A DNA stretch of 64,000 nt from an archaeon. Lineage in GTDB: Archaea > Nanobdellota > Nanobdellia > Pacearchaeales > GW2011-AR1. The stretch lies in the NCBI GenBank assembly GCA_027343665.1, contig DAHWKL010000001.1, positions 386,278 through 450,277 on the forward strand. Direction: 5' to 3'. Below the pieces are notes generated by a model. That model was not told the origin of the DNA, did not search any database, and saw nothing but the letters and a program-made list of their open reading frames with translations. Numbering within the stretch: position 1 is the stretch's first letter; each line of letters starts with the position of its first letter. The translations under genes were made by a program, and so were the position numbers. This document shows, piece by piece, positions 5,291 through 43,364 of the stretch.

Positions 5291-6379
5291 TTATTTTTTT
5301 ACGACTCTTATATACTCATCGTCTCTTTTTCCGTTGATATGAGAAACAAAATAACCCACAACAATCCGATAATATTTTTCACCGGATTTTCCCGAGACTT
5401 CTTCCACAACCCCTTTAAACTCAATTACTTCTCCGGGGAATGCCAACATACAATAATCTCTTGAGTAAAAAACGACTTTTTCGATGTTTAAATCCCTGCA
5501 GGAGTTATCCCCTTCAATAAATATACATTTTTCAACTTCATAACAGCCGGGCCTTACAACAGAGTTTATATTACCCTTGACAAGAGCTTTAAATTTAGCA
5601 TCCCCTATCTTTTTGTACCTTTCTTCTCCCCACTTGCACCAAGTTTCATCCGGGTTTTCTATCCCAAAAATAACAAATAAGGTATTTCTGAAAAAACCCT
5701 CAGACTTCTTATTATTCATTCTCTCAAGATAATCCTTTTTATCCTGAAGGATATACCTATTTCTTTTTTTATAGAAAGTTTCCCATTCATTGTAAGTTTT
5801 CCATCTCAAATCTTTATGTCTATGCTTTTTTAAAAATTCCATAAGCGCCCAGAAATTTTTCTTTCCATAAACGACTACATTGATATCTGACATGTTTTGA
5901 GAGTAATATCCCATAATTGTTGAGTAAGTCACACCGAAACTATCAAGATTTATTCCACTTTTAAGGAAGAAATTAACAAGGTCTACCACTTTTTTCAAAT
6001 GTTCATCGAGATCTTTATAAGGAAGGGTCATGAGCTCCTTTAAACCTTCCTTTGGCGAATAAATCTTGTCAATGTATTCTTTAGGGATGCTGAAAAAGTG
6101 TAAATCTGGACTATGCACATCACTTTTAAAAATGTAATGGGGATAAGCTCTCGCAAAGTCTTGGAAGTACTTTCGTAAGTTTATCTTATCAATCCAAAGG
6201 TCCAATCGGTTAACTTTCCTTCCAAGGATAAACCTATATGGAAGAGCATCACTCGAAATTTTATCTGTTGGGATGTACTTGGGTTTCACAATTAACCTAC
6301 CTTTTGGATGCTCATTACTGTATACAAGGCATTGCAGTCCATCTTTTGTAGTGATAATTGATGATTCTGGAAAGTACAT
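5291..6379 (-). CDS. Pol-beta-superfamily nucleotidyltransferase with possible C-terminal OB-fold region, paralog 2
   Basis: 362 aa. GVTYSTIMGYYSQNMSDINVVVYG fits the minimal NTase motif. The C-terminal 100 aa are beta-rich and might be an OB fold. It aligns along its whole length with the adjacent 365 aa ORF. Confidence 0.5.
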   Translation of the reverse strand: MYFPESSIITTKDGLQCLVYSNEHPKGRLIVKPKYIPTDKISSDALPYRFILGRKVNRLDLWIDKINLRKYFQDFARAYPHYIFKSDVHSPDLHFFSIPKEYIDKIYSPKEGLKELMTLPYKDLDEHLKKVVDLVNFFLKSGINLDSFGVTYSTIMGYYSQNMSDINVVVYGKKNFWALMEFLKKHRHKDLRWKTYNEWETFYKKRNRYILQDKKDYLERMNNKKSEGFFRNTLFVIFGIENPDETWCKWGEERYKKIGDAKFKALVKGNINSVVRPGCYEVEKCIFIEGDNSCRDLNIEKVVFYSRDYCMLAFPGEVIEFKGVVEEVSGKSGEKYYRIVVGYFVSHINGKRDDEYIRVVKK

Positions 6380-6380
6380 T

Positions 6381-7478
6381 TTAAATCAACGCTTTTATAA
6401 ATTCTTTTTCCCTCCTTTCGTTAAGGTAAGCATCAAAATAACCAACAACAACCCTATAATATTTCTTTCCAATCTTGGGGGTTACAAGCTCAAGAAGACC
6501 ACATGCACTTATCTCTTCTCCCTTGATGGCTTGCTGAACAAAAGGTATCGAGAAAGTGACTATCTTTTTTATTTCAAGTGATGGGTCGAAAGAGTTTATT
6601 CCTTCCATTTTTAGTATTTCCGCATCTTTTATACCATAAAAACCCGGTCTCACATGACTATTATAATGATCTGTTACTTTGCCTTTTACTGTAACAATCC
6701 CGAGAGGCTCATATTTTTCCTCTCCCCATTTGAACCAAGTTTCTCCTGGATCTTCTACAGTGAAAAGGGTGAATACATTGCCCCCAAACATCCCCTCATA
6801 CCTCTTTCTTTTCATATGTTTGATATATTCATCTTCAGTAAAGTGCAAGGACTCAGAAGTTTTATGATCTTTATAATATTCTGACCACTCCTGATCAGTT
6901 TTCCAGTGAAGTTTTTGATGCTCAGCTGTCTTCAGATAGTCCAGGATTTTCCATCCATTATCTTTTCCATAAACAATTACATCTATATCTGACTTCCCAG
7001 GAGTATAATTTCCAAGTAAAGTTGAATGCGTTATACCCATAGATTCTGTCTTCACCCCACTTTTTACCAGGAATTTTATCAGTTCCACGACATTACTCAA
7101 ATAAGAATCCAAATCTTTTCCCGGAACCTTCATCAGTTCCTGAAGACCTTTTCTCGGATCATGAACTTCTTTTATCTTGCTTTTAGGAACAACAAAAAAC
7201 CAATTCCCTGAAGATTTATCCTCATAGATGTAATCAGGAAAATTCTTCTTAAATTGATCGACATAATTTTTAAGTTTGTCTTTTTGAGCGAACAGATTGA
7301 ACCTGATTAGGCACTTCTCAAACAGGAAACGATATTTCAGACCTTCCCCTTTTAGTGCACCTGAAGGGATATACTTAGGTTTTACGATGATGTACCCTTT
7401 AGGATGCTCATTTGAATAAGATTTACATTGAAAACCATCAACAGTATCTATAAGAACAGATTCATAAAAATGTGCCAT
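6381..7478 (-). CDS. Pol-beta-superfamily nucleotidyltransferase with possible C-terminal OB-fold region, paralog 1
   Basis: 365 aa. GITHSTLLGNYTPGKSDIDVIVYG fits hG[GS]x9-13DxD. It is the first gene of a 4-gene minus-strand operon. A TATA-like ATTTTTAT lies about 27-34 nt upstream of the ATG. Confidence 0.5.
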   Translation of the reverse strand: MAHFYESVLIDTVDGFQCKSYSNEHPKGYIIVKPKYIPSGALKGEGLKYRFLFEKCLIRFNLFAQKDKLKNYVDQFKKNFPDYIYEDKSSGNWFFVVPKSKIKEVHDPRKGLQELMKVPGKDLDSYLSNVVELIKFLVKSGVKTESMGITHSTLLGNYTPGKSDIDVIVYGKDNGWKILDYLKTAEHQKLHWKTDQEWSEYYKDHKTSESLHFTEDEYIKHMKRKRYEGMFGGNVFTLFTVEDPGETWFKWGEEKYEPLGIVTVKGKVTDHYNSHVRPGFYGIKDAEILKMEGINSFDPSLEIKKIVTFSIPFVQQAIKGEEISACGLLELVTPKIGKKYYRVVVGYFDAYLNERREKEFIKALI

Positions 7479-7535
7479 TTTTGTATCCCCGGATAAAAAT
7501 AGAACTGAAGATTTCTTTTTAAAGATTATGCCTTT

Positions 7536-8363
7536 TCATTTATTAATACCTTTCACAGCGAGATAATTCTCATCAGAGATCTTGCTGATTTTATATCCAA
7601 TGGGTTCCAAAACTTTTCTTGATTTATCAAGATATTCTCCATTCCAAGCTTCAAAGATTATTTTAGGGTGGAACTTTCTTAGAGTTTTCTTGGCTCCCCT
7701 AAAAACTTCCGATTCGGCACCTTCAACATCTACTTTGATTAAATCGACCCTTTTTAAGTTTAAAATTTTAATAATATTATCTAATCTGTCTGTTTTTACT
7801 CTAATTTCACCCCTTTTTTTTATTGGAGTGTCTTTTATTAGAGAGTGCCCACCATCTCCCGATTTATCCAAATAAAATGTGCATTCTCCCTTGGAATCTG
7901 AACAAGCTAAATTAAGAGGGATAACATTCTTTAATTTATTCAGAAGGATATTCTTTCTTAAAACAGAAAAATTCTTTGGCTCTGGCTCTATGGCAATAAC
8001 TTTTCCATCACCTCTTAATGCTCTTGCTAAAGGTATTGTATGCATACCTCCATTTGCCCCAATATCAATCACAATACCTTCTTTTATCCAAGGTCTTCCC
8101 CTAATATTTGACTCACTAAGAGAACTAAATCCAAACAAGGTGTATTTATTATTCCCACAAAAAAATAGACCATATTTGTTCTTGATTGTAACATTTGATC
8201 TTAGAAGTGGGGAAGAAGTTATATTCCTTAGATGATTAATCAAAAAGAGATCAATCCTCATATAATAGCTTAGTATTGTGAATTTGTCCTTTAATGTATA
8301 AGCCTCACTTATCAAAGTTACCACAAATCTCATTCTCTTAATTAAACGCGACAGCACTTGCAT
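7536..8363 (-). CDS. FkbM-family SAM-dependent methyltransferase
   Basis: 275 aa with IDIGANGGMHT (SAM motif I) and LIKVDVEGAESEVFRGA, typical of the FkbM family. Confidence 0.7.
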   Translation of the reverse strand: MQVLSRLIKRMRFVVTLISEAYTLKDKFTILSYYMRIDLFLINHLRNITSSPLLRSNVTIKNKYGLFFCGNNKYTLFGFSSLSESNIRGRPWIKEGIVIDIGANGGMHTIPLARALRGDGKVIAIEPEPKNFSVLRKNILLNKLKNVIPLNLACSDSKGECTFYLDKSGDGGHSLIKDTPIKKRGEIRVKTDRLDNIIKILNLKRVDLIKVDVEGAESEVFRGAKKTLRKFHPKIIFEAWNGEYLDKSRKVLEPIGYKISKISDENYLAVKGINK

Positions 8364-25139: not shown

Positions 25140-25271
25140 AGAATTTTGAGAAAGAAGTGGTTTATAAAACTTTTTATACCCTCATCTTATAGGAATAATA
25201 TCAATTTCCACAATATGTGGGTGTGCCGGAAAGTTCAAGATTGAAGATGAACTCACCGTCACATAATTCAT

Positions 25272-25354
25272 GTGGGTGTGCCGGAGTGGTCAAACGGGCA
25301 AGATTAAGGCTCTTGTGGTTTATCCTTACCTAGGTTCGAATCCTAGCACCCACA
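25272..25354 (+). tRNA. tRNA-Leu (class II, long variable arm); anticodon loop TTAAGGC reads as AAG
   Basis: Hand fold: acceptor GTGGGTG/CACCCAC, D-arm CCG-GAGTGGTCAAA-CGG, anticodon stem CAAGA/TCTTG, variable arm TGGTTTATCCTTACC and T-arm CTAGG-TTCGAAT-CCTAG. Confidence 0.75.
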
Positions 25355-25367
25355 TATCTTCCAACAT

Positions 25368-27099: not shown

Positions 27100-27633
27100 A
27101 TGAGAGAAGATTACGCGACAGTATTAGATTACTTACCAAACGGCTATCCTTTGGAAGGGAAGATGATGCCCATAGTTCAGGCTATAGGCAAAGAGAATTT
27201 CACACTCCTTGAGCTCGCTCCACGACGCGGGGTAAGTATAGAGATTGGAGAAGACCTTTACATTGGCGAAGGCAAAAGGGATAAAGTTTACTATATCCTT
27301 GGAAGGCTCAAAAGGGAAAAGCTTACAGAAACCGCAAAGAGAGAACTTCAGGAGGCAATCTCCAAAAGAATAAAAGAAAACGAAACGAAAATAGTTAAGT
27401 TTTTTAATGAAGCTCCCGCAATAAACAAAAGACTCCATCAGATTGAGCTTTTACCGGGAATGGGGAAAAAGCATATGATGGAAATCTTGAAGCAAAGGGA
27501 AGAGAAACCTTTTGAATCATTCAAGGAAATGAAAGAAAGGATCCCAAACCTTCCTGACCCTGAAAAATCCGTCGAGAAAAGAATATTTCAGGAATTGACA
27601 GAGATAGAAAAATACAATCTCTTCACACAATAA
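27100..27633 (+). CDS. DUF655-family protein (putative RNA/nucleic-acid-binding, HhH)
   Basis: 177 aa. The N-terminal YATVLDYLPNGYP is typical of DUF655, and the position after rpoF is conserved. Confidence 0.65.
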   Translation: MREDYATVLDYLPNGYPLEGKMMPIVQAIGKENFTLLELAPRRGVSIEIGEDLYIGEGKRDKVYYILGRLKREKLTETAKRELQEAISKRIKENETKIVKFFNEAPAINKRLHQIELLPGMGKKHMMEILKQREEKPFESFKEMKERIPNLPDPEKSVEKRIFQELTEIEKYNLFTQ

Positions 27634-27634
27634 G

Positions 27635-28135
27635 ATGGCAGAAAAACAAATGATGCAAAAACCAGCAGCAAAGAATGAGGAAAGGATAGTGAGAATACTA
27701 TCAAAGGATATAGAAGGCGGAATGAAGGTCTATCCTGGACTCACAAAGATAAAAGGTGTTTCATGGGCAATTTCAAATGCAACATGCCAGATTTTGGGGA
27801 TTCCAAAGACAAAAAAAATAGGAGAACTCACTGATGTTGATATAAAAAAGATAAGCGAGTTCATAAAAAACCCAAAAGTTCCGAATTTCATATTAAACAG
27901 AAGAAAAGATCTCGAAACCGGAGAAGACAAACATCTAATTGGAGTTGATCTTGAACTGAAAAACGAATTTGATATAAAGAGATTGAAAAAAATAAAAAGT
28001 TATAGGGGACTTAGGCATACGCTTGGGCTTCCTATGAGAGGACAAAGAACAAGATCACATTTCAGGAAGAACAGGAGAAGAGGTTCGGGCATACAGAAGA
28101 AAACTGTAAAAACCGAGATGAAGAAGGAGAAGTAA
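27635..28135 (+). CDS. rps13: 30S ribosomal protein S13 (uS13)
   Basis: RILSKDIEGGMKVYPGLTKIKGV...GLRHTLGLPMRGQRTRS. Confidence 0.85.
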   Translation: MAEKQMMQKPAAKNEERIVRILSKDIEGGMKVYPGLTKIKGVSWAISNATCQILGIPKTKKIGELTDVDIKKISEFIKNPKVPNFILNRRKDLETGEDKHLIGVDLELKNEFDIKRLKKIKSYRGLRHTLGLPMRGQRTRSHFRKNRRRGSGIQKKTVKTEMKKEK

Positions 28136-28136
28136 G

Positions 28137-28601
28137 ATGAAGAGAAAGCATAAGAAATATTCAAGACCAAAGAGACCTTTTGACAAGACAAGAATAGAGG
28201 AAGAGGCAGTGATAAAGAAAAAGTATGGTCTCAAAAATAAAAGAGAAATCTGGAAAGCAGATGCTAAAGTCACAGTTATGAGACAAAAAGCCAAAAAATT
28301 AATTAAAGCACCGCAGGAAGAGAAAAAAGTTTTATTCTCAAGGCTTCAAAAGATAGGACTTAAAGTATCATCGATATCGGATGTTCTTGGATTGAATAAG
28401 ACAGATTATCTTGAAAGGAGACTCCAGACCGTCGTTTTAAGGAAAGGACTTGCTCCGACGATAAAAACATCAAGACAGATGATAACACACAAGAAGATAT
28501 CCGTAAACGGGGCAGTGGTGGATAGCCCATCTTATATTGTTCCCGTGGATTATGAGGATAAGATAATGAAAAAAGAAAAAACAAAGAAGGTAACAAATTA
28601 A
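28137..28601 (+). CDS. rps4: 30S ribosomal protein S4 (uS4)
   Basis: KKYSRPKRPFDKTRIEEE...KYGLKNKREIWK plus a C-terminal S4 domain. Confidence 0.85.
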   Translation: MKRKHKKYSRPKRPFDKTRIEEEAVIKKKYGLKNKREIWKADAKVTVMRQKAKKLIKAPQEEKKVLFSRLQKIGLKVSSISDVLGLNKTDYLERRLQTVVLRKGLAPTIKTSRQMITHKKISVNGAVVDSPSYIVPVDYEDKIMKKEKTKKVTN

Positions 28602-28602
28602 A

Positions 28603-29142
28603 ATGGCAAAGAAAAAAGCCGAAGAGAAGGAAATGAAAGAAAATGACGGAGAATTGAATTTAACTGAGACCGACAATCAGAAAAGCGGAGAACAGCCTGA
28701 AGAAGTTGAAGTTTCGGATGAAGAAAGATTAACCGAGGAAGATCACTCCGCAAAAGCGACTGTCAGTAAAGAATCGGAAGCTGTAATAAATATTTACACT
28801 TCTTTTAATAATACAATTGTCCATGTGACAGACATGTCTGGAAAAACTATTTCAAAAATTACCGGTGGCATGATTACCAAACATGACAGACTTAAAGCGA
28901 ACCCGACAATAGCAATGTTCATCGCAAAAAGGATAACCGAAGAGGTAAAAGATTTGGGCATAAAATCTTTTTATGTCAGAATAAGAGCAAAGACAAGAAA
29001 TCCTGCACCTGGACCAGGAGCCCACAGCATAATAAAAAGCCTTACAAGAGATGGGTTCAAGATAATAAATATCTTGGATACAACAAGAATGCCAAGAGGC
29101 GGACCAAAACAGAAAGGGGGAAGAAGAGGAAGAAGACCGTAA
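28603..29142 (+). CDS. rps11: 30S ribosomal protein S11 (uS11) with about 55 aa acidic N-terminal extension
   Basis: The core reads INIYTSFNNTIVHVTD...PGPGAHSIIKSLTRDGFKIINILDTTRMPRGGP. Confidence 0.85.
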   Translation: MAKKKAEEKEMKENDGELNLTETDNQKSGEQPEEVEVSDEERLTEEDHSAKATVSKESEAVINIYTSFNNTIVHVTDMSGKTISKITGGMITKHDRLKANPTIAMFIAKRITEEVKDLGIKSFYVRIRAKTRNPAPGPGAHSIIKSLTRDGFKIINILDTTRMPRGGPKQKGGRRGRRP

Positions 29143-29173
29143 GTCTTAAATAACTTCTTTACAAAAAAATAAA

Positions 29174-29881
29174 ATGGAAAAAAATGCTGATATGAAAATA
29201 TCTTTCAAAATCAAAACAAATGAGAGCCTTGCAAATGCAATAAGAAGGGGTACAGGCCTTGTTCCAACTATGGCAATAGATGAAGTGGAAATTTCAAGAA
29301 ATGATTCAGCACTTTACGATGAAACTCTCGCCCACAGGATAGGGCTCATTCCAATAAAGATGGATAAATCCTGGAAAGAGGATACTGTCTTAAAATTTAA
29401 ACTTGATTCAAAAAAAGAGAATGTTTATTCAGGAGAGATTAAAGGAGATTTTGAACCCGTCTATGAAAAAATTCCCCTCACACTCCTTAGCCCAAACCAA
29501 GAACTTAAGATAAAAGGAAAGACAAAGATGGGAACGGGAAGAGAACATGCAAAATTTTCACCCGGAATAATTTTGTACCGAGACATCACCGAAATATCCC
29601 TTGACAAAGAGTTTGAAAAAGAGATAAAGAATATTTTTCCGGGAATAGAAATAAAAGATAAAGGAAATAAAATCATACTAAAAGATGACAATGAAAAAAC
29701 CGTCCTTGATTTCTGCGAGGGTCTTGCACAAAGGAAGAAAAAGAAAATAGAAGTGACAGAAACTGGAGAATTCCTTTTCACAGTTGAATCTTTTGGCCAA
29801 ATGAAAGCAGAAGAAATTTTCAAGAAATCCATCGAGATTCTTGAGAAAGAATTGAAAGGCATATCAAAAAAAATAAAATAA
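29174..29881 (+). CDS. rpoD: DNA-directed RNA polymerase subunit D (Rpo3)
   Basis: 235 aa with the SLANAIRR motif. It holds the conserved position after S11. Confidence 0.8.
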   Translation: MEKNADMKISFKIKTNESLANAIRRGTGLVPTMAIDEVEISRNDSALYDETLAHRIGLIPIKMDKSWKEDTVLKFKLDSKKENVYSGEIKGDFEPVYEKIPLTLLSPNQELKIKGKTKMGTGREHAKFSPGIILYRDITEISLDKEFEKEIKNIFPGIEIKDKGNKIILKDDNEKTVLDFCEGLAQRKKKKIEVTETGEFLFTVESFGQMKAEEIFKKSIEILEKELKGISKKIK

Positions 29882-33081: not shown

Positions 33082-33636
33082 TCAGTTTAACGAAAAGATA
33101 AAACCGATTTCTACTCCAGGACCTTCGAAATCAGAATCGAAAGTTATAGCGTTGTATTTCAGACTTATGTAAAGATAGCCCGAACTGGAAGTGTAACCCC
33201 CAAAACCTATTTTTGGAGCTACACCGAAACCATCTGTTGAAGACGAATAATGCTTGCCGTTATAGTCTTCGCTTGAAGAAATTGAAGCATAGAAAAATTC
33301 CCCACCAAAGAATACATTTCTTTCAGAGGAAAAGTAGTACAGATATTCTCCACCTATAGAGACCAAAGAATAATCGACTTTCTGCCCTGCAAATTCGCTT
33401 CCATTATCAAACGTTTGGGTCGCTATTTTCCATTCAGCGAAGACACCCCACGTCTGAGTCGTTGAAAGATTTTTCTCGTAAGCTCCTTTCAACCCATAAA
33501 AGTTACAGTTATCAACATTATGGGGCTTCATGAAAGTTCCAGAGAAATCTATCCCTGACTCAGGAATCAAAGAATTCTGAGCTTTCACAGGAGCGAATGA
33601 GAACAGAAATGCAATGATTAATGCTGCGGATTTCAT
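33082..33636 (-). CDS. Secreted beta-barrel (bacterial OMP_b-brl/porin-family-like) protein
   Basis: Signal peptide MKSAALIIAFLFSFAPVKAQ, then alternating aromatic/Gly-rich beta-strand pattern. The ATG at 33636 has a GAGGA SD; the track start at 33648 is GTG. Confidence 0.5.
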   Translation of the reverse strand: MKSAALIIAFLFSFAPVKAQNSLIPESGIDFSGTFMKPHNVDNCNFYGLKGAYEKNLSTTQTWGVFAEWKIATQTFDNGSEFAGQKVDYSLVSIGGEYLYYFSSERNVFFGGEFFYASISSSEDYNGKHYSSSTDGFGVAPKIGFGGYTSSSGYLYISLKYNAITFDSDFEGPGVEIGFIFSLN

Positions 33637-33688
33637 TTTCATCCTCACTTTTTTGAAGTTTAAAATTAGTTAATTACAAGATAATTTT

Positions 33689-35816: not shown

Positions 35817-36407
35817 TTAGAAGTTGTATTTTATTCCTGAAGACCACAAGAACTCTTTTGCCTGCTTCATATATCCGACTCCACCATAAGCAGAGAGATG
35901 TCCTGTCAGTCTGAAAGATTTGTTCATACCAAAGATATTTTCAGGCAGGAACTTTTGGTAACCAAGCAATGCGTAATAGAATTCATAAGAATTCACAATT
36001 ATCGTTGCTTGCTCATAGTTGAAACAGAAACGGATTTTAGGAGAAGTATTTCCGAGTTCTGGGTCCCCAAAGCTCCATCCGACCCAAATGAGCAGGCTCA
36101 AGTGGCCACTGAATAAATTCGCTGAAGTGACAGGAGCTATCCAAGCAACATTTTTGAAAAAACCAACCGTGGGACCCAAAGAAATGTTTCCGGTTATAGG
36201 ATGAAAGAAGAGCATCTCTCCTTGGACAGGATTGAAATCGAGAAACATTGAATTTCCCGAGCTATCCGAAACGGTTGCTGAGATATCAATGCCGTCCGAA
36301 AGAGGAGTTTTTCCAGTCTGAGCAGAAATTGTGTTAAGCCTCCAGTTTTGTGCATTTGCCATGGAGGTAAGAAGAATTGTTAGGACAAAATAAATGAGCG
36401 TTTTCAT
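35817..36407 (-). CDS. Secreted beta-barrel (bacterial outer-membrane-protein-like) protein
   Basis: Signal peptide MKTLIYFVLTILLTSMANAQ, amphipathic beta-strand pattern, and a C-terminal ...SSGIKYNF ending in Phe (OMP beta-signal-like). AAGGAG SD upstream. Confidence 0.5.
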   Translation of the reverse strand: MKTLIYFVLTILLTSMANAQNWRLNTISAQTGKTPLSDGIDISATVSDSSGNSMFLDFNPVQGEMLFFHPITGNISLGPTVGFFKNVAWIAPVTSANLFSGHLSLLIWVGWSFGDPELGNTSPKIRFCFNYEQATIIVNSYEFYYALLGYQKFLPENIFGMNKSFRLTGHLSAYGGVGYMKQAKEFLWSSGIKYNF

Positions 36408-36738: not shown

Positions 36739-38703
36739 TTAAGGTTGTGAATATGAATCTGAAATTTTAAGGAGCTTTCTCCATCCTTTGCTGCTCCTCT
36801 CTTCTTTCTGGACAATTATACCTTTTTCTACAAGTTTGTCTTTTATAACATTTCCCTTTCTTGAAGATAAACCTACAGCTTTGTACAATTCAACTGTCGA
36901 TAAATTATGAGTGGGATTCTCCACGAGGAAATTTATGAGGGTGGTCTCTTCGGGAGAAAATGAACTGTTGGGAACGGATATTGTATCTATAGGAATGTCG
37001 GACTTATCTGATTTGAAACTCTTGATATCCATATTTTCAGCTAATATTTTATTCATGACTATAAGAACATCTTTTTTTGTATAATATCCTGAAGATACTC
37101 CTGAATCAAGAAGTTTTTCAACTTCCAAAAGGTTCAGTCTCTCTTTTGATTTTTTAGATGCAAAATCATAGAGAATCTTCTGAGTTTTTGAAAGCAAGCT
37201 TCCTATAACTACTTCTTCCTTCCTGGACTTTTCGGCTTTAATAATGGGTTTTCCAGGAGTTTCATTCTCAACTTCCCTGCCATTAAAAACTATTTTCTCT
37301 TTGAATTTTGGATCACTTTTTTCTGTTTCAGCAACTTCAGCCACAAATTCCATCTTGCTTTTTATTTTCTCTGAAGTAAGCGAGAGATTTCTCAGTTCGT
37401 CGAAAGGAACTTCGATCAGGAAAGGAGAGGTATATCTCTCTGAAAGTTTTACAATAGCAGATCCGACCTTTAACTCATTGAATATATCCATTTTATCCTT
37501 TAACCTCATCAGAGAGCTGACTTCTTCAACATCTGACGGAAGTTGCTGCTGGAAAGCGATATGACAAGCACTGTTTCCCACAACAGTATCTGAGAGTTTC
37601 GAGATATGTTGATCCAAACAGATTAAGCTTGTCCCGTATTCACGCATCTCTCTATAGACCATATCCGTAACAGACTCGGACATGAAATTTGTATCTTTTT
37701 TAAGAAAGATGTTATGAGCTTCGTCCACAAGGATCGCATTTTTGAATTCTCCGTTTGATTTAATCTCTCCTGCTTTCTTCAGCTTAAAGGTATAAGTCAG
37801 AAGATATTCACAGAAAAATTTCTTCTCAATATTTGAAAGGGAATTCAACTCAAAAATTACCTGTTTATTAAAAAGCTCTTCTATTGAGATGCTTTTTTTT
37901 CCGTCGTAGTTCACAACTTTTCCGAAATCGCCAAAGGTCAATACGGTCGCAATCCTAAGAGCACTCTCATACCAACCGGTCTCTCTTCCTTTTGAATCTC
38001 TTGCTTTGATTTCAAGCATTTTCTTCACATGCTCCCAATTAGGGTATAAATCTGAACCTTGGTAAACCCCCCACCCTTCAAAAGTTTCATCAAGTGTCTC
38101 AAGAAGAATTTTATGAACTCCAAAGGAAACATTAAAGGTTTCGGTGAGCAAGTCACAAAGAACATTTATCCATTCTTTAGGACTTACCCCATTCGGGGGC
38201 CGGTTTATATTAGTCTTAAAAAAGTTGCTTATCTGATTGTTTCCTACTGTGAAACACATGACTGACGGATTCACCTCAAGAAGTGGCCTGAAGCTTTTTT
38301 TCCAGTCAAAGACCATGAATGGCTTCTCTTTTCTCAGGAAATTTTTAAGAATATTCAAGGCAAGGGTCGTCTTCCCGCTCCCACTCATTCCCGTTATGCA
38401 AATATGCCTTGGCCAATCTTTCTCCCTTAAAGAAAAGTCAAATAATTTTTTTCCCGCATAACTAACTTTAGCTAAAGGGTATTCCCCGTCAAACGAGCCT
38501 TCTGAAGGCGGTTCTAAGGAAAAATCCTTATCAAGGAGTTTTGAAAGATGCCTCTGATAAAGAGAAGACAATATCTGAAAGATTTCATTTTTCTCTTCAT
38601 TATCTTCACTGTTCATGTACCTGAAATAAATTTCATCAATTTTGCTCCCAAGTATAGGCTTTAATTTTCTTGCCAGATCTTCGACGGAAATTCGTGTTTG
38701 CAT
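36739..38703 (-). CDS. FtsK/HerA-superfamily P-loop ATPase (DUF87/T4CP-like) with possible C-terminal winged-helix region
   Basis: 654 aa with Walker A ITGMSGSGKTT, FDWKKSF, and Walker B AILVDEAHNIF. The C-terminal LSTVELYKAVGLSSRKGNVIKDKLVEKGII reads as a possible HTH pattern. There is a 1-nt gap to the upstream gene. Confidence 0.65.
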   Translation of the reverse strand: MQTRISVEDLARKLKPILGSKIDEIYFRYMNSEDNEEKNEIFQILSSLYQRHLSKLLDKDFSLEPPSEGSFDGEYPLAKVSYAGKKLFDFSLREKDWPRHICITGMSGSGKTTLALNILKNFLRKEKPFMVFDWKKSFRPLLEVNPSVMCFTVGNNQISNFFKTNINRPPNGVSPKEWINVLCDLLTETFNVSFGVHKILLETLDETFEGWGVYQGSDLYPNWEHVKKMLEIKARDSKGRETGWYESALRIATVLTFGDFGKVVNYDGKKSISIEELFNKQVIFELNSLSNIEKKFFCEYLLTYTFKLKKAGEIKSNGEFKNAILVDEAHNIFLKKDTNFMSESVTDMVYREMREYGTSLICLDQHISKLSDTVVGNSACHIAFQQQLPSDVEEVSSLMRLKDKMDIFNELKVGSAIVKLSERYTSPFLIEVPFDELRNLSLTSEKIKSKMEFVAEVAETEKSDPKFKEKIVFNGREVENETPGKPIIKAEKSRKEEVVIGSLLSKTQKILYDFASKKSKERLNLLEVEKLLDSGVSSGYYTKKDVLIVMNKILAENMDIKSFKSDKSDIPIDTISVPNSSFSPEETTLINFLVENPTHNLSTVELYKAVGLSSRKGNVIKDKLVEKGIIVQKEERSSKGWRKLLKISDSYSQP

Positions 38704-38704
38704 T

Positions 38705-39202
38705 TTATGCTGTGACCTCCCTTAAAATTTTCTGAAGCTTAGAAGGGATATAAAATTTAACATTATAACTCCCAAGTCCATAACGCGCATTAACTTTCTT
38801 AAAAGACTGCCTGGGCTTGAATGATCCTCCATCACCATTCCTAGACGCGAGAAGCAACGGATTTTGCCTTACGACAACTGCAGCGTGATACACCTCCCCC
38901 AGGGTCTCCCATGCTACAAGATAACCCCGCCTTGGAGAATCTGCCTCAGGGAGATAATCAAAAAACCCATGCTTCGGACCATCATAAACAAAACCATCTT
39001 TATCTACTTCACCTACAAGATAAAGTGCAGTCCCTATGCAATTTCTCTTTCCTTTGGTCTTTACAGCTTTCTTCCTTCTCTGATCAAGTTCAGAATAAAA
39101 ATATTCTATATCCTCGTTTGTATGAATATAACCATTCCCTTCCCAAATTGATATTAAAGGAAAGCGATTTTTTATTTGACTGTAAATATCTCTTATTTTC
39201 AT
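38705..39202 (-). CDS. Hypothetical protein with Cys/His pair (possible papain-fold/NlpC-P60-like hydrolase)
   Basis: About 165 aa from the ATG at 39202 (the track start is TTG). It contains NCIGTALYLVG ... EVYHAAVVV. Assignment of the fold is speculative. Confidence 0.35.
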   Translation of the reverse strand: MKIRDIYSQIKNRFPLISIWEGNGYIHTNEDIEYFYSELDQRRKKAVKTKGKRNCIGTALYLVGEVDKDGFVYDGPKHGFFDYLPEADSPRRGYLVAWETLGEVYHAAVVVRQNPLLLASRNGDGGSFKPRQSFKKVNARYGLGSYNVKFYIPSKLQKILREVTA

Positions 39203-39203
39203 T

Positions 39204-39770
39204 TTATTCTTTATGCCCCCCAATTTTCACAAAATCATACATACTTTCTGGAAAAAGTGAAACATCAAAACCCTTACTTTCTAAATCTTTTCTCACGGAT
39301 TTATAAGAATCATTTGCCTTTTCAAGATCATTTATCTTCATAATCTTATTCATCGCTCTTGAATCAGATACATAATCTGGTTTAATATCACCCACAAACA
39401 TCCCTGAAAAATGGTTAGCGCTCTTTGCTAATTCTCCATTAGGAATGAGATTAACTTTTGCATTTGCGCATTCAAAAGAATCTGTCAAGTCAAAAGATAG
39501 CCTCTCCAGATCTGAAGGAAGAAGGGACAAACCAATAGGAAACCCATCAAATAACATCCCCCTATTCCTAAGGATCTCAAAAGTATTCCTATATTCTGAA
39601 AAAAAATTATTCTTAAACAACCTTAATTGATCCCCTCTTAATTCAGATTTACCAGAACAAGCTTCTGAGATCATTTTTGAAAAACTGATTAAACTGCCTT
39701 CAAGAAAATCCTGAGCAATTGCCCGCAACCTTTTAGAATTATAACCTAAATCAGACTGTTCAGACTCCAT
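39204..39770 (-). CDS. Hypothetical protein (188 aa), no recognisable domain
   Basis: The ATG at 39770 (MESEQSD...) overlaps the upstream gene by 11 nt and has a GGTGGTGA SD-like sequence. A longer alternative start lies at 39836. Confidence 0.4.
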   Translation of the reverse strand: MESEQSDLGYNSKRLRAIAQDFLEGSLISFSKMISEACSGKSELRGDQLRLFKNNFFSEYRNTFEILRNRGMLFDGFPIGLSLLPSDLERLSFDLTDSFECANAKVNLIPNGELAKSANHFSGMFVGDIKPDYVSDSRAMNKIMKINDLEKANDSYKSVRKDLESKGFDVSLFPESMYDFVKIGGHKE

Positions 39771-40224
39771 CTTCACCACCCAATATCCTTTCAAAAACTT
39801 TTGCCCTTTCTTCTTTCTCGTTGAGCTCTCTCTCATACTCCCTTAGTTCTTTCTTCAAAAGTGCGATATCTTTCCAGCAGCTTATCTTTTCATTCATCTG
39901 AAGTTCCGATATTTCTATCCTCTTATATCTCAGACTGTCTTTCTCTTTTACCACATCCTGAGAAGCTATCTGCATCCTTTCATTTTCGGCAAGATACACA
40001 TTTATTTCAGACTTAAGGGATTCTCCTTCTTCGTGAATCTTCCTACTTAATTTCTCTCTTCCTTTTATCATCTCATGAATTTCTTCAATTAGAGTTTTCA
40101 AAGCTTCGATCTTTGAGTTGCCTAATTCTCCAACAATTGCCTTCTCCGAAGGTATTTCATGGTTTTTCCAGTCTTGCAACTCTGAAAAATCCTGTTTTAG
40201 GGTGTTTTTCACATCAAATTCCAT
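39760..40224 (-). CDS. Coiled-coil protein (about 154 aa), first gene of the ATPase operon
   Basis: Heptad-rich sequence (EALKTLIEEIHEMIKGREKLSRKIHEEGESLKSEI...). ATG at 40224; the track start at 40236 is GTG. Confidence 0.45.
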   Translation of the reverse strand: MEFDVKNTLKQDFSELQDWKNHEIPSEKAIVGELGNSKIEALKTLIEEIHEMIKGREKLSRKIHEEGESLKSEINVYLAENERMQIASQDVVKEKDSLRYKRIEISELQMNEKISCWKDIALLKKELREYERELNEKEERAKVFERILGGEDGV

Positions 40225-40247
40225 AATCTTTACCACTTAGCAGTTAC

Positions 40248-40254
40248 TTATAAA
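40248..40254 (-). promoter_or_regulatory. Candidate archaeal TATA box for the 40224-36739 operon
   Basis: The minus strand reads TTTATAA 24-30 nt upstream of the ATG, consistent with a leaderless or short-leader archaeal promoter. Confidence 0.3.
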
Positions 40255-40309
40255 CTTTTCTACTTTGTTATAACTGACAAAAGGTGAAATTTCTGAAAAA
40301 GAAAACGAA

Positions 40310-40392
40310 TGTGGGTGCTAGGATTCGAACCTAGGTAAGGATGAACCAACAGATTTTGAGTCTGTCCCGTTTGACCACTCCGGCACACCCAC
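40310..40392 (-). tRNA. tRNA-Leu (anticodon CAA)
   Basis: The reverse complement reads GTGGGTGTGCCGGAGTGGTCAAACGGG-ACAGA-CTCAAAA-TCTGT-TGGTTCATCCTTACC-TAGGTTCGAATCCTAGCACCCACA. Outside the anticodon arm it is identical to the tRNA-Leu at 25272 except for 1 nt. Confidence 0.8.
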
Positions 40393-40549
40393 ATTATCTG
40401 TGTGACTGTGAGCTCATAACTCCTGAACTCCAGGCACACTTTATTACGGAATTTTTATAACACAAACATTTATAAAATAAACTAATTTTGGAATTTCACC
40501 TGCGAGTAAAAAGCGCATAGCGGGAAAAACTTTTTCTCGTTAAGCTACA

Positions 40550-40912
40550 ATGAAATCAAAGACTAAAATAGAAGTACAGTTAAGGAAAAAGACCAATCCA
40601 GAATTAGTCGAGACTATAATCCTTGCAAAAAAAAGGCCTGAATGGAAAGAAGTTGCCAGCATACTTGCAGGATCGCGTAAGAAAAGAAAAGATATGAATT
40701 TAGCTTCCATAAATGAACTGGGAGTAGACTCCGTCGTTATATGCGGAAAAGTGCTCGGGGATGGAGAGATTACAAAAAAAGTTAAAATTGCCGCACTTGG
40801 ATTTTCACAAAAAGCCAAAGAAAAGCTCAAAATAGCAGGCTGTGAAATGAAAACAATCCTTGAAGAGATTAATTCAAACAAAAATGCTAAGGGGGTCACA
40901 ATAATAAAATGA
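40550..40912 (+). CDS. rpl18e: 50S ribosomal protein L18e
   Basis: 120 aa. RKKTNPELVETIILAKK...KVLGDGEITKKVKIAALGFSQKAKEKL matches L18e. Confidence 0.8.
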   Translation: MKSKTKIEVQLRKKTNPELVETIILAKKRPEWKEVASILAGSRKKRKDMNLASINELGVDSVVICGKVLGDGEITKKVKIAALGFSQKAKEKLKIAGCEMKTILEEINSNKNAKGVTIIK

Positions 40913-41301
40913 AGGTAGTAGAAGGGAAAGGGGCTGCTTTAGGAAGACTTGCAAGCTTTGCCGCAAAAGAAGCGCTGAAAGGCGAGGAAATCCTGATTGT
41001 CAACTGTGATGAAGTTATAATTACAGGAAATTTCAAAGCGACAAGAAAGAACTTCGATGAAAAAAGGAGCAGAATAGGAAGCAGTCAAAAAGGTCCGAAA
41101 CATCCTGCAACATCAGAAAAGATAGTAAAAAGAGCTATAAGAGGGATGATTCCGGATACAAGAATGGGAAGAGGAAAAGAAGCATTTAAGAGGATAAAAT
41201 GCTACAATAAAATTCCAAAAGAGCTTGAGAATTCAAAATTCTTAGAGATTCACAATGAGAAAAAGATTAAGTATTCAATGGTAAAGGAGTTTACAAAGTA
41301 A
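40909..41301 (+). CDS. rpl13: 50S ribosomal protein L13 (uL13)
   Basis: GAALGRLASFAAKEALKGEEILIVNCDEVIITG; ATGA overlap with L18e. Confidence 0.8.
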   Translation: MKVVEGKGAALGRLASFAAKEALKGEEILIVNCDEVIITGNFKATRKNFDEKRSRIGSSQKGPKHPATSEKIVKRAIRGMIPDTRMGRGKEAFKRIKCYNKIPKELENSKFLEIHNEKKIKYSMVKEFTK

Positions 41302-41302
41302 A

Positions 41303-41707
41303 ATGAACGGGAAAATTTATGCATCAGGAAAAAGAAAAGAAGCTGTCGCAAAAGCGGAAATTTCGGCGGGAAAAGGAAAGATCACTTTCAATGGGAGAGA
41401 TTACAAAAACCTCGAACTTTTTGACAGACTAAAGATAGAAGAGCCGATAAGGATCGCGCAGAATGTTCTGGGAAAAGCAGATTTTGACATAGAGATTCTT
41501 GTTCAGGGTGGCGGCTCAAAAGGCCAGATCGATGCTGCAAGACTTGCAGCTGCAAAGGCGATTGTACAGATAACGAAGTCTGAAGAACTCAAGCAAGCTT
41601 ACTTGGACTATGACAGAAATCTTCTCGTTGCTGATGTAAGAAGGAAAGAAACCAGAAAACCAGGTGATTCAAAGGCGAGAGCAAAGAGACAAACTTCTTA
41701 CAGATAA
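41303..41707 (+). CDS. rps9: 30S ribosomal protein S9 (uS9)
   Basis: GKRKEAVAKA...QGGGSKGQIDAARLAAAKA...RRKETRKPG...KRQTSYR. Confidence 0.85.
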   Translation: MNGKIYASGKRKEAVAKAEISAGKGKITFNGRDYKNLELFDRLKIEEPIRIAQNVLGKADFDIEILVQGGGSKGQIDAARLAAAKAIVQITKSEELKQAYLDYDRNLLVADVRRKETRKPGDSKARAKRQTSYR

Positions 41708-41755: not shown

Positions 41756-42109
41756 ATGGGAAGATATTTTGACGATGAATTTAATGATGTGAAATTTTCT
41801 GTAAGATACAAAGAGAAAAATTCATGGCTCCCAAGAAGAGATCAATTACTAGATGGGAAGACACTGGGAGAGATTAGAAGATATTTTGAGACAATAGGGA
41901 GGGAAGACCTTTTCGGAGAGTCTGAAAGATATGAAAGAGTGTCCAAAGTGGAAGAAAGTATGTTCGGCATAGATTACACTGTCCTTAGTTATCCTGCCTT
42001 AGGTAGTGATAAAGCAAATTCTCCAAATCAATTTGAGAGACACAAGCCAAGAGAAACGAGGTATTTTGTCACACCAAGAAGATTTCCATGGAAAATTTCC
42101 GGCAATTAA
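41756..42109 (+). CDS. Hypothetical protein (117 aa)
   Basis: ATG-initiated ORF with no recognisable motif. Confidence 0.35.
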   Translation: MGRYFDDEFNDVKFSVRYKEKNSWLPRRDQLLDGKTLGEIRRYFETIGREDLFGESERYERVSKVEESMFGIDYTVLSYPALGSDKANSPNQFERHKPRETRYFVTPRRFPWKISGN

Positions 42110-42532
42110 TTATTTTTTTATACCATTTCTTTCCAGTTTGTCCTGCACATGGTTGAAGAGCGTTGACGAAACTAATGGATCATGATTACCATCATGCACC
42201 ACGCCATCAAATTTTATTTTTCCAAGATAAGTGAAATTCCTTAATACTTTTTTTATCCCGTTAACAGAAAATCCATACTTTTTTGCGAGCTTGTTCAGAC
42301 TGATATTAGTATCCTGAAAATCCAAAAAAATATTTTCAACAATCGGAGAACTTTCAGATTTTTCAAGGAGTCCTTCAACAATTTTGTATCCAAAAGGAGC
42401 TCGGGAAACCGCATGGCCACTTTTTGCCCTTGACTCCATACCTTTTTTCAATTTTTCTTTTTCAAATCTTAAGAGTTCGATCTCCCTTTTAAGTTTCTCA
42501 TTCTCTTTTTTCAGCTCTTCATTCTCGTTCAT
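42110..42532 (-). CDS. Coiled-coil + serine-recombinase 'Recombinase' domain protein lacking the catalytic resolvase domain
   Basis: 140 aa. The N-terminal 30 aa are heptad-rich (EELKKENEKLKREIELLRFEKEKLKK). This is followed by APFGYKIVEG..., IVENIFLDF, SLNKLAKKYG and VLRNFTYLGKIKF, which match the Recombinase DNA-binding domain. It overlaps xerA by 14 nt. Confidence 0.55.
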   Translation of the reverse strand: MNENEELKKENEKLKREIELLRFEKEKLKKGMESRAKSGHAVSRAPFGYKIVEGLLEKSESSPIVENIFLDFQDTNISLNKLAKKYGFSVNGIKKVLRNFTYLGKIKFDGVVHDGNHDPLVSSTLFNHVQDKLERNGIKK

Positions 42533-43364
42533 TTTCTAAAGTGTCTATCGGACTTTTTATTTTTTTCAAAGACTCCGGCGAAACATGTGTATAAAGCTCC
42601 GTTGTGGAAATTGAACTGTGACCCAAAAGTTGCTGGATGAATCTGATATCAGTTCCATCCTCCAGTAAATGGGTTGCAAAAGAATGCCTTAATGTATGGC
42701 AGTGAACATCTTTTTTTATACCGGCCTTTCTTGCTGCCAGTTTGACAATTTTCTGAAGATTTCTCGAGGACATCCTCCTTCCTCCTCTGCCGGGAAAAAG
42801 ATATTTTTCACCAACTGCTTGCTGCTTTTCAGAATGCTTCTTTAACCGGACAAAAAGAAACTTTGGAATATTAAAAGCCCTATCTTTTTTTCCTTTTGCC
42901 TGTTTAATCATACCAGTCTTTTCCTCAAAATTAATATCTGCAATCTTCAGAGAGGCAACTTCAGAAACCCTCATTCCGGCAGCATACATCAAAGAGATCA
43001 TAAGCCTCGATTTCCTTGTATTAAGAGCGTCAAAAAGGTCAAGAACTTCTTTTTTTGTCAAAACAACAGGAATTCTTTTCTCTCTTTTCGGACGTCTAAT
43101 ATTTGCTGTCAAATCTTTTTTTAGAATGTTAGATGTTGAAAATTTCAGAGCTGCGAGGAACATGATTATAGAAATTGCTGATTTCTCAGAAAGATTTTCT
43201 GCTATATAATTTTTGATATCATCTTCCGTAACTTCATCCGGCTCCTTTTTTACAAAGTTCAGAAACAATTCGTTGAAATTAAGATAATTCTTCAAAGTAT
43301 ATTCTGAATTTTTTGATATTTTAAGCTCTACTTCAAGCTTTTTCAAAAATTCTTCTTTTTTCAT
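42519..43364 (-). CDS. xerA: Tyrosine recombinase, XerA/XerC/D-like
   Basis: 281 aa with ...MRVSEVASLK..., HTLRHSFATHLLEDGTDIRFIQQLLGHSSISTTELYTHV (the R..HxxR..Y catalytic set). Confidence 0.8.
   Translation of the reverse strand: MKKEEFLKKLEVELKISKNSEYTLKNYLNFNELFLNFVKKEPDEVTEDDIKNYIAENLSEKSAISIIMFLAALKFSTSNILKKDLTANIRRPKREKRIPVVLTKKEVLDLFDALNTRKSRLMISLMYAAGMRVSEVASLKIADINFEEKTGMIKQAKGKKDRAFNIPKFLFVRLKKHSEKQQAVGEKYLFPGRGGRRMSSRNLQKIVKLAARKAGIKKDVHCHTLRHSFATHLLEDGTDIRFIQQLLGHSSISTTELYTHVSPESLKKIKSPIDTLENERE

Follow-up and report, generated by a model that had tools for sequence, protein, structure and literature searches.

In a 64,000-nucleotide window of archaeal DNA from the order Pacearchaeales (GenBank assembly GCA_027343665.1, contig DAHWKL010000001.1, positions 386,278 to 450,277), four consecutive genes on the minus strand end in one that encodes a P-loop ATPase (Table 1). 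We found that only the first of these genes, coding for a coiled-coil protein, and the last, coding for the ATPase, form a conserved pair, and that genes 2 and 3 are lineage-specific occupants of a slot between them. With somewhat more belief than doubt, we favour the view that the pair is a two-gene module that DPANN archaea of the Woese-/Pacearchaeota type (GTDB Nanoarchaeota) inherit vertically and keep under strong constraint, and that would act as a DNA motor in chromosome maintenance with the slot proteins as accessories. We are quite confident of the architectural and evolutionary part of this proposal; the mechanism, a DNA motor in chromosome maintenance, is drawn by analogy and is put forward tentatively.

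Conservation was assessed in a scan of one genome per GTDB species, which returned 173 genomes with a relative of the ATPase; 80 DPANN loci were used for comparison and searched by tblastn with all proteins of the window. Gene 1 lay directly upstream of the ATPase gene in 75 of these loci, and four of the five loci lacking it have just 0–566 nt of upstream sequence. All four genes together occurred in none of the 80, gene 3 being present in five and gene 2 in one. The initial annotation had taken the four genes for a single cassette and had itself named their failure to co-occur elsewhere as the finding that would speak against it, and this is what was observed. Homologs of the ATPase number in the hundreds, are full-length and 55–77% identical, and come from Pacearchaeota, Woesearchaeota, Nanoarchaeota and genomes labelled Diapherotrites; an alignment of 16 sequences has a mean column identity of 63%, with long invariant stretches. 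The homologs of gene 1 (n = 94), all of about 150 amino acids and free of Pfam domains, have two conserved helical stretches, each about 50 residues long, on either side of a variable loop, with the invariant pattern NEK..CWKD..LLKKELR.

The chromosomal surroundings of the pair are conserved as well. In a first synteny group of about 35–40 loci, the order is Xer recombinase, a small Recombinase-like protein, the ribosomal proteins S9, L13 and L18e, tRNA-Leu(CAA), gene 1, slot and ATPase, and in about 35 loci it is this tRNA that separates L18e from gene 1. In a second group, the genes for L35Ae, L10e and an RNA methyltransferase precede the pair on the same strand. The ATPase has diverged much as the ribosomal proteins have: in 33 loci, mean identity to the window copy was 60% for the ATPase, 57% for L18e, 62% for L13 and 68% for S9, and the divergence of the ATPase correlated with that of ribosomal proteins (Spearman 0.52, p = 0.002). 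No repeat of the tRNA-Leu resembling an attachment (att) site was found to bound the region in the window, and a motif-seeded scan of 2.9 million viral contigs (IMG/VR) gave 132 candidate stretches, none of which is a relative of the core branch. The tRNA-Leu(CAA) is thus a conserved syntenic neighbour and no integration scar.

We considered the possibility, initially put forward, that the four products form a dedicated complex, their genes having been inserted at the tRNA as a mobile or defence cassette. The tight coupling of the four genes behind a single promoter, the adjacent tRNA gene and the somewhat higher GC content of the genes downstream would fit such a cassette. Yet, apart from the lack of co-occurrence, the presumed insertion point consists of synteny (tRNA-Leu, L18e-L13-S9 and Xer) that is kept in about 35–40 species, and the downstream genes previously read as foreign DNA recur in the closest relative, locus L001, at 80% and 50% identity. 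This same relative, whose ATPase is 77% identical to that of the window, has six different slot genes and no gene 3. Same-strand neighbours with overlaps and 1-nt gaps are common throughout the window; tight spacing is the style of a compact genome and is therefore weak evidence for a physical complex. Taken with these observations, a dedicated four-protein complex from an inserted cassette is very improbable.

The interval between gene 1 and the ATPase gene proved to be hypervariable. It measures at most 60 nt in 31 of the 75 loci, 60–400 nt in 19 and more than 400 nt in 25, and where it is occupied (44 loci) it holds one to six co-oriented open reading frames (ORFs). The 76 slot proteins fell into 53 BLAST clusters, mostly singletons, and the close relatives L002–L009 differ from one another in slot content. 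Pfam recognised only two isochorismatases, one FHA domain and one kinase-like protein among the slot proteins, and PADLOC, run on 68 of them, gave no match better than E = 8.5e-4. In L001 the slot (positions 5731–7999 of that locus) comprises six genes, with two gene-2-like units, two tandem isochorismatase-family genes and one kinase-like gene among them; since this content differs from that of the window despite the close similarity of the two ATPases, slot turnover must be very fast. An integron-like cassette was rejected for the slot of the window, where the 1-nt gaps and overlaps leave no space for recombination sites. In the slot-bearing loci of the second synteny group, no Xer gene lies within the 8-kb flank examined.

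The two slot genes of the window are lineage-specific occupants of this kind. Conserved homologs exist for genes 1, 3 and 4, whereas gene 2 had a tblastn match only in L001, at 30% identity, and returned no family or PDB match. Its two halves align to two separate genes of L001, the sequence LPSDLERL closing the first unit, and gene 2 has the appearance of two such genes, each of about 100 amino acids, fused into one. Its GC content at third codon positions is 0.27, as compared with 0.36–0.38 for genes 1 and 4. Gene 3 belongs to a small family, with seven cluster members by BLAST, counting the window's own, always located in the slot, and only nine homologs in 5.8 billion proteins. The family keeps SNCIGTALYLVGE, an invariant His106 and the C-terminal tail YIPSKLQKIL; in the alignment, His106 is found in 14 of 14 sequences and Cys55 in 12 of 14, the exceptions having Ser (L037) or Ala (L034). 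These residues would be compatible with a Cys-His hydrolase of papain fold, which we regard as a possible identity; the best papain-like match among PDB profiles was the CHAP domain of PcsB (E = 0.51, not significant), and the structure model, with a predicted local distance difference test score (pLDDT) of 41.7, was too low in confidence for a fold search. In L034, a 252-residue slot protein (7241–7999) consists of a gene-3-like domain, the one with the Cys-to-Ala replacement, fused to the C-terminal module of another slot family, and thereby joins in a single protein two slot families that are otherwise unrelated.

A tail motif, [LIVFYT]-P-x-x-[LM]-[EQN]-x-[ILM], occurs near the C-terminus of 13 of 69 slot proteins, as compared with 1 of 1383 other ORFs of the same loci, the pattern having been defined post hoc, after seeing the data. 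Its codons vary synonymously, which points to selection at the protein level. A seed-based hidden Markov model (HMM) of the C-terminal module, which linked gene 2 to other slot families, was circular and was dropped. The tail allows a bolder version of our proposal, in which the pair would be a modular machine whose specificity is set by interchangeable, tail-docked slot proteins, that is, an adaptor or client system not described so far, built on a motor of the HerA class. Such a system may have been domesticated from a mobile element, and may serve genome maintenance or interactions with a host or with viruses. We consider this extended version improbable as a whole.

The operon begins with a conserved promoter. 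Counted from the ATG of gene 1, 74 of the 75 loci have a TTTAWA box whose first base is at −28 to −30, and AGAAAg.TTTATAA is the block of highest information upstream of this gene. In the window, TTTATAA occupies 40254–40248, 24–30 nt upstream of the ATG at 40224, exactly as first described. Because of this box-to-ATG geometry, read in the light of what is generally known of archaeal promoters, the transcript is likely to be leaderless and to start at about the ATG of gene 1. The four ORFs are all present where they had been placed, and the sequence shows that genes 1 and 2 overlap by 11 nt and that the other two junctions read TAAaATG, with a gap of 1 nt each. Together with the promoter at a fixed distance from gene 1 and a GGAGGT before the ATPase gene, this agrees with the idea of a single transcript, and genes 1–4 are likely to be one transcription unit, on which the GGAGGT may serve for internal translation initiation.

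Between the TATA box and the ATG lies a near-palindrome with the consensus (G/C)TAACT-N4-AGTRRYAA, which in the window takes the form GTAACT-N4-AGTGGTAA. The strict pattern TAACTN4AGT occurs 68 times in 1.13 Mb of loci, and 37 of these occurrences fall within 110 nt upstream of gene 1, an enrichment of about 160-fold. A looser pattern is found in 50 of the 75 loci, at about −58 or at about −21, the latter corresponding, as in the window, to the interval between TATA box and ATG. The support for it is its positional conservation across species; within the window by itself, it is no more frequent than chance would give. The palindrome is possibly the binding site of a regulator, which may be the winged helix of the ATPase itself or another protein.

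The initial assignment of the last product to the HerA/FtsK superfamily of P-loop ATPases, with a possible C-terminal winged helix, was upheld by Pfam, by an AlphaFold model and by Foldseek. Its Walker A, DWKKSFR (D133–R139) and Walker B/DEAH (I324–N331) motifs are each invariant across 16 homologs. Pfam matched DUF87 (PF01935, the HerA central domain) over residues 98–301 (31.7 bits against a cutoff of 23.2; E = 2e-7) and, below threshold, TrwB_AAD_bind (15.3 against 20.5 bits); the full-length ATPase had no Pfam match to the FtsK_SpoIIIE motor domain. The best NCBIfam match was CedD, confined to the ATPase domain and far under its 600-bit cutoff (65.6 bits, E = 3e-18), with HerA_Thermprot and HerA_antiphage reaching 22 and 15 bits against cutoffs of 800. 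The only PDB sequences matched by a profile of the 16 homologs were the HerA entries 8xau and 4d2i, with the match limited to the C-terminal half of the core. Foldseek related the core to HerA, VirB4, DndH-C, TdpA and the Sir2- and DUF4297-associated HerAs, with E-values of 8.5e-13 to 1e-10 at 12–16% identity; target-normalised template modelling scores (TM-scores) were 0.70–0.74 for DndH-C and VirB4 (4ag5, 0.74) and 0.4–0.55 for full HerA chains. A fold search against viral structures returned generic HerA, VirB4 and packaging ATPases only. The ATPase is a member of the HerA/VirB4 clade and falls within no characterised subfamily.

In the AlphaFold model (overall pLDDT 74), the N-terminus is formed by a three-helix bundle (residues 7–58) and a beta hairpin (75–92), without a barrel, followed by the P-loop core (about 100–440), a disordered linker, a three-helix module (506–557) and the winged helix. 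The latter has an H-H-H-beta-beta topology (pLDDT about 74–87 over residues 581–650), and S613, R615, G617, N618 and K621 of its predicted recognition helix are invariant in the 16-homolog alignment. Ten C-terminal regions, searched against Pfam, gave no consistent family and no FtsK_gamma. Inspection revealed no transmembrane segment in the ATPase or in the product of gene 1.

With HerA, known as the archaeal end-resection helicase that works with NurA and as a bacterial anti-phage protein that works with Sir2 or DUF4297, the ATPase has in common the P-loop core with its Walker A motif, the hhhhDEAH-type Walker B motif, a DUF87 match above threshold and a small partner gene directly upstream. 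In contrast, the identity of 12–16%, with sequence similarity confined to the C-terminal half of the core, is low; HerA has a HAS barrel where the present ATPase is modelled with a three-helix bundle and hairpin, and lacks its long linker and C-terminal winged helix. HerA is partnered by NurA, Sir2 or DUF4297 and the present ATPase by a coiled-coil protein, and instead of the HerA-NurA neighbourhood (NurA, Mre11, Rad50) its conserved neighbours are gene 1, tRNA-Leu, ribosomal proteins, Xer and the RNA methyltransferase. The C-terminal domain of VirB4, an ATPase from DNA-transfer systems of the type IV secretion kind, superposes on the core (4ag5). As for the VirD4/TraG/TrwB coupling proteins, the TrwB match is sub-threshold and genes for relaxases or a type IV secretion system are not among the conserved neighbours. 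The likeness to FtsK, SpoIIIE, SftA and the TraB of Streptomyces is an architectural analogy only, consisting of a ring-type ATPase from one and the same superfamily, a linker and a C-terminal winged helix. The winged-helix domain of FtsK and TraB reads specific DNA motifs. A further parallel with FtsK is the Xer recombinase gene, found 2.3 kb away in about 37 loci. Unlike the FtsK clade, however, the present protein has a core of the HerA/VirB4 clade, no FtsK_SpoIIIE or FtsK_gamma match in Pfam and no transmembrane domain, nor is there any sign of skewed chromosomal target motifs.

More distant relatives place this architecture in a wider setting. An exhaustive profile search with the ATPase yielded 390 cluster representatives at E ≤ 1e-30, and six second-tier ATPases (31–37% identity) were placed on contigs. 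A homolog of gene 1 lies directly upstream in four of these six loci (HMM E-values of 4e-8 to 4e-12), with a W-K/R-D...KEL motif in common. Their surroundings are unlike those in the window. L081 has an integrase, AbiEi/AbiEii, a Cdc6-like protein and another DUF87 ATPase; L082 has DISARM-like genes, namely PLD, MZB/DUF1998 and a large helicase; L083 has SSB, an archaeo-eukaryotic (AEP) primase, RadC, DUF2958 and, again, a second DUF87 ATPase; and L086 has HNH and transposase genes. The ATPase of L081 carries an extra C-terminal domain that looks, by inspection, like a PD-(D/E)xK nuclease. The second DUF87 ATPases, of about 680–690 amino acids, are located at positions 1–905 of L081 and 8698–10776 of L083, a hint at a two-ATPase machine in the mobile-element-like branch. 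The two-gene module is ancient, with one branch in mobile-element- or island-like settings and another constrained in the chromosomes of DPANN archaea.

These contexts raise the question of whether the module is a domesticated DNA-transfer or partition device of a mobile element, used for DNA transfer or uptake between symbiont and host, or combining a nucleoside triphosphatase, a DNA-binding domain and an upstream cis site. Besides the genes that accompany the distant copies in L081 and L083, the CedD match of the ATPase domain speaks for this possibility. CedD is a HerA-clade ATPase required for DNA import in Sulfolobales, and carries a transmembrane domain and a VirB4-like N-terminal domain (PMC11868833). 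Both of these domains are missing from the present ATPase, and genes for CedA, CedB, VirB6 or pilins, or for a channel or relaxase, were not encountered near the pair in the 80 loci. The palindrome upstream of the operon fits the logic of a partition cassette, and the module is located beside a tRNA, between the RpoD and L18e blocks of an apparently split operon (see below). HerA-like ATPases of arCOG00280, which are among the commonest genes in archaeal dark-matter islands (PMC4158269), belong to the same broad DUF87 class and resemble the distant relatives in their association with mobile elements. The branch of the window differs from them in being chromosomal, in ribosomal-gene synteny, conserved at the level of ribosomal proteins and not found on viral contigs, and no att repeat marks its borders. 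Any integration would also be ancient and would not of itself define the present function. Altogether, we give little credence to a domesticated transfer or partition module.

A defence function was weighed in the same manner, the pair being taken as a constant sensor or motor and the slot genes as swappable effectors, by analogy with Sir2-HerA or DUF4297-HerA. The Sir2/HerA, DUF4297-HerA and TdpAB complexes, all of them defence systems, are among the structural neighbours, small enzymes of diverse kinds (the possible Cys-His hydrolase, isochorismatases, kinase-like and FHA proteins) occupy the slot and turn over rapidly even among close relatives, the common tail suggests docking, and one distant relative lies beside DISARM-like genes and another beside AbiE. 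PADLOC matched the ATPase weakly and in part to HerA and mad8 models (E = 2e-11 to 1e-4), and gave no match better than E = 0.0056 for the small proteins of the window. On the four window proteins, however, it found no system-level match, contrary to the defence module initially suspected, and no slot protein convincingly matches a known defence effector. In 31 of the 75 loci there is no slot gene and hence there would be no effector, and ribosomal-protein-level conservation within a fixed housekeeping synteny is atypical of defence systems. A defence hub is therefore unlikely in our judgement.

We also considered a substrate other than DNA, in which case a ring ATPase with a coiled-coil stalk would act on protein or RNA, for instance in ribosome- or RNA-associated remodelling, with the slot proteins as its clients or adaptors, told apart by their C-terminal tails. 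Both synteny groups lie amid genes for ribosomal proteins, tRNAs and RNA methyltransferases, and gene 1, judged from its alignment, resembles a helical hairpin of about 150 residues. In this it is similar to the stalk proteins of other ring ATPases, such as FliJ or SctO with FliI or SctN. The conserved tail on unrelated slot proteins likewise resembles a degron or a docking peptide. Characterised members of the HerA/VirB4/FtsK clade, on the other hand, act mostly on DNA or in DNA-transfer machines; several of the top structural matches are DNA-bound HerA-family complexes, the winged helix and the PD-(D/E)xK-like fusion in the distant relative favour DNA, and a ribosomal-gene neighbourhood is common for many unrelated archaeal housekeeping genes. 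Action on protein or RNA seems quite improbable to us.

The reading that we prefer, a constrained chromosomal module acting on DNA, would work as follows. By analogy with HerA, VirB4 and DndH/TdpA, the ATPase would assemble into a hexameric ring that translocates or remodels double-stranded DNA. The predicted winged helix would target it to DNA, possibly including the palindrome of its own promoter, for autoregulation or as a loading site, and the coiled-coil hairpin protein encoded by gene 1 would be an obligate adaptor or regulator of the ring. Because of the housekeeping context and the ribosomal-protein-like conservation, the role would be in chromosome maintenance (segregation, resolution or repair) and not in defence. 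The slot proteins would be optional accessories, several of which may dock on the core pair via the 'hydrophobic-P-x-x-L-E-x-L' tail.

Several points weigh against this mechanism. Complex formation, hexamerisation, DNA binding and translocation are all extrapolated from structural relatives, and the winged helix is a predicted topology that matches no Pfam family. The palindrome is missing, or too diverged for detection, in 25 of the 75 promoters, and it may serve a regulator other than the winged helix of the ATPase. The tail motif was recognised post hoc, and a leave-out HMM of the C-terminal module linked gene 2 to other slot families only weakly (E = 0.15). A ribosomal-protein operon stands between the pair and the Xer gene, and the second synteny group lacks this proximity altogether. 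Finally, the mobile-element- and defence-island-like contexts of the distant relatives leave room for a conflict-related role.

Table 1. Positions in the window of the operon, its motifs and its signals
Feature	Position	Strand	Description
Gene 1	40224-39760	minus	154 aa, coiled-coil
Gene 2	39770-39204	minus	188 aa, orphan slot gene
Gene 3	39202-38705	minus	165 aa, slot gene, small family
Gene 4	38703-36739	minus	654 aa, HerA/VirB4-clade P-loop ATPase
BRE (transcription factor B recognition element)/TATA promoter element GAAAAGTTTATAA	40248..40260	minus	from sequence and conservation in 74/75 loci
Near-palindrome GTAACTGCTAAGTGGTAA	40230..40247	minus	between TATA box and ATG; candidate operator/binding site
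Shine-Dalgarno-like GGAGGT	38715..38720	minus	11 nt upstream of ATPase ATG, read from sequence
Walker A GMSGSGKTT, residues 105-113 (G105-T113)	38365..38391	minus	invariant in 16 homologs
Walker B/DEAH-type AILVDEAHN, residues 323-331	37711..37737	minus	invariant in 16 homologs; aligns to HerA EEAH motif
Predicted C-terminal winged helix-turn-helix, residues 584-647	36763..36954	minus	AlphaFold topology
tRNA-Leu(CAA)	40309-40393	minus, same strand as operon	syntenic neighbour

The ribosomal-protein genes around the operon are arranged in two blocks, DUF655-S13-S4-S11-RpoD at 27100–29881 and L18e-L13-S9 at 40550–41707, the latter on the strand opposite to genes 1–4. They are about 10.6 kb apart, with opposite-strand genes between them that include the ATPase operon and tRNA-Leu. 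In the canonical archaeal arrangement, one operon runs S13-S4-S11-RpoD-L18e-L13-S9, and it is by this order that the module and the tRNA appear to sit inside a split ribosomal operon. About 11 related loci likewise have RpoD downstream of the ATPase at a comparable distance, and the split is therefore old. The position after S9 is usually held by RpoN; in the window, a 117-residue ORF without Pfam match (41756–42109), with tblastn matches only in L001 and L010, follows S9. Beyond it, at 42110–43364 on the minus strand, the gene of a 281-residue tyrosine recombinase of the Xer type shares 14 nt with that of a 140-residue protein with an N-terminal coiled coil and a weak match to 'Recombinase' (PF07508). 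The two are kept at 44–82% identity in 37 related loci, which suggests that the 140-residue protein is a dedicated small partner of this archaeal Xer.

Downstream of the ATPase, the minus-strand genes at 35817–36407 and 33082–33648 encode proteins of 196 and 188 residues with signal peptides and no Pfam match, and between them lies the gene of a 673-residue CBM96/fn3 surface protein with a raised GC content (0.44). The 196-residue protein, whose family recurs downstream of the ATPase in 8–10 loci, ends in an aromatic residue (..KYNF), as do bacterial outer-membrane beta-barrels, which is odd in an archaeon. Farther away, a 16-nt exact copy of the 5' end of the tRNA-Leu (25215–25230) lies about 40 nt upstream of a tRNA-Leu(AAG) (25271–25355), next to tRNA-Arg and tRNA-Gly, and could represent either a tRNA fragment or the scar of an old recombination event.

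The class of the ATPase is known, and the earlier remark that its small partners match no recognised family was borne out, genes 1–3 giving nothing significant with Pfam, NCBIfam, PADLOC, PHROGs and PDB profiles. In the literature searched, we found nothing specific on this ATPase subfamily in DPANN archaea and no description of the coiled-coil partner, the domain layout, the ribosomal-protein-level conservation in DPANN, the promoter palindrome or the hypervariable slot. In the compact genomes of these archaea, neither a neighbouring tRNA nor closely spaced genes are the mark of a mobile defence island. A conserved operon with a hypervariable slot, and a tail common to unrelated proteins, offers a lead to a modular adaptor system that can be tested. 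Motors of this class drive DNA repair, secretion, packaging and immunity, and here one is met with an undescribed partner and domain layout. In DPANN archaea, whose genomes are tiny, conserved genes of unknown function are few. The pair is likely to be important to their biology, because it is constrained like ribosomal proteins in many species and has its own conserved promoter and operator-like site, and this two-gene module is a good target for understanding that biology.

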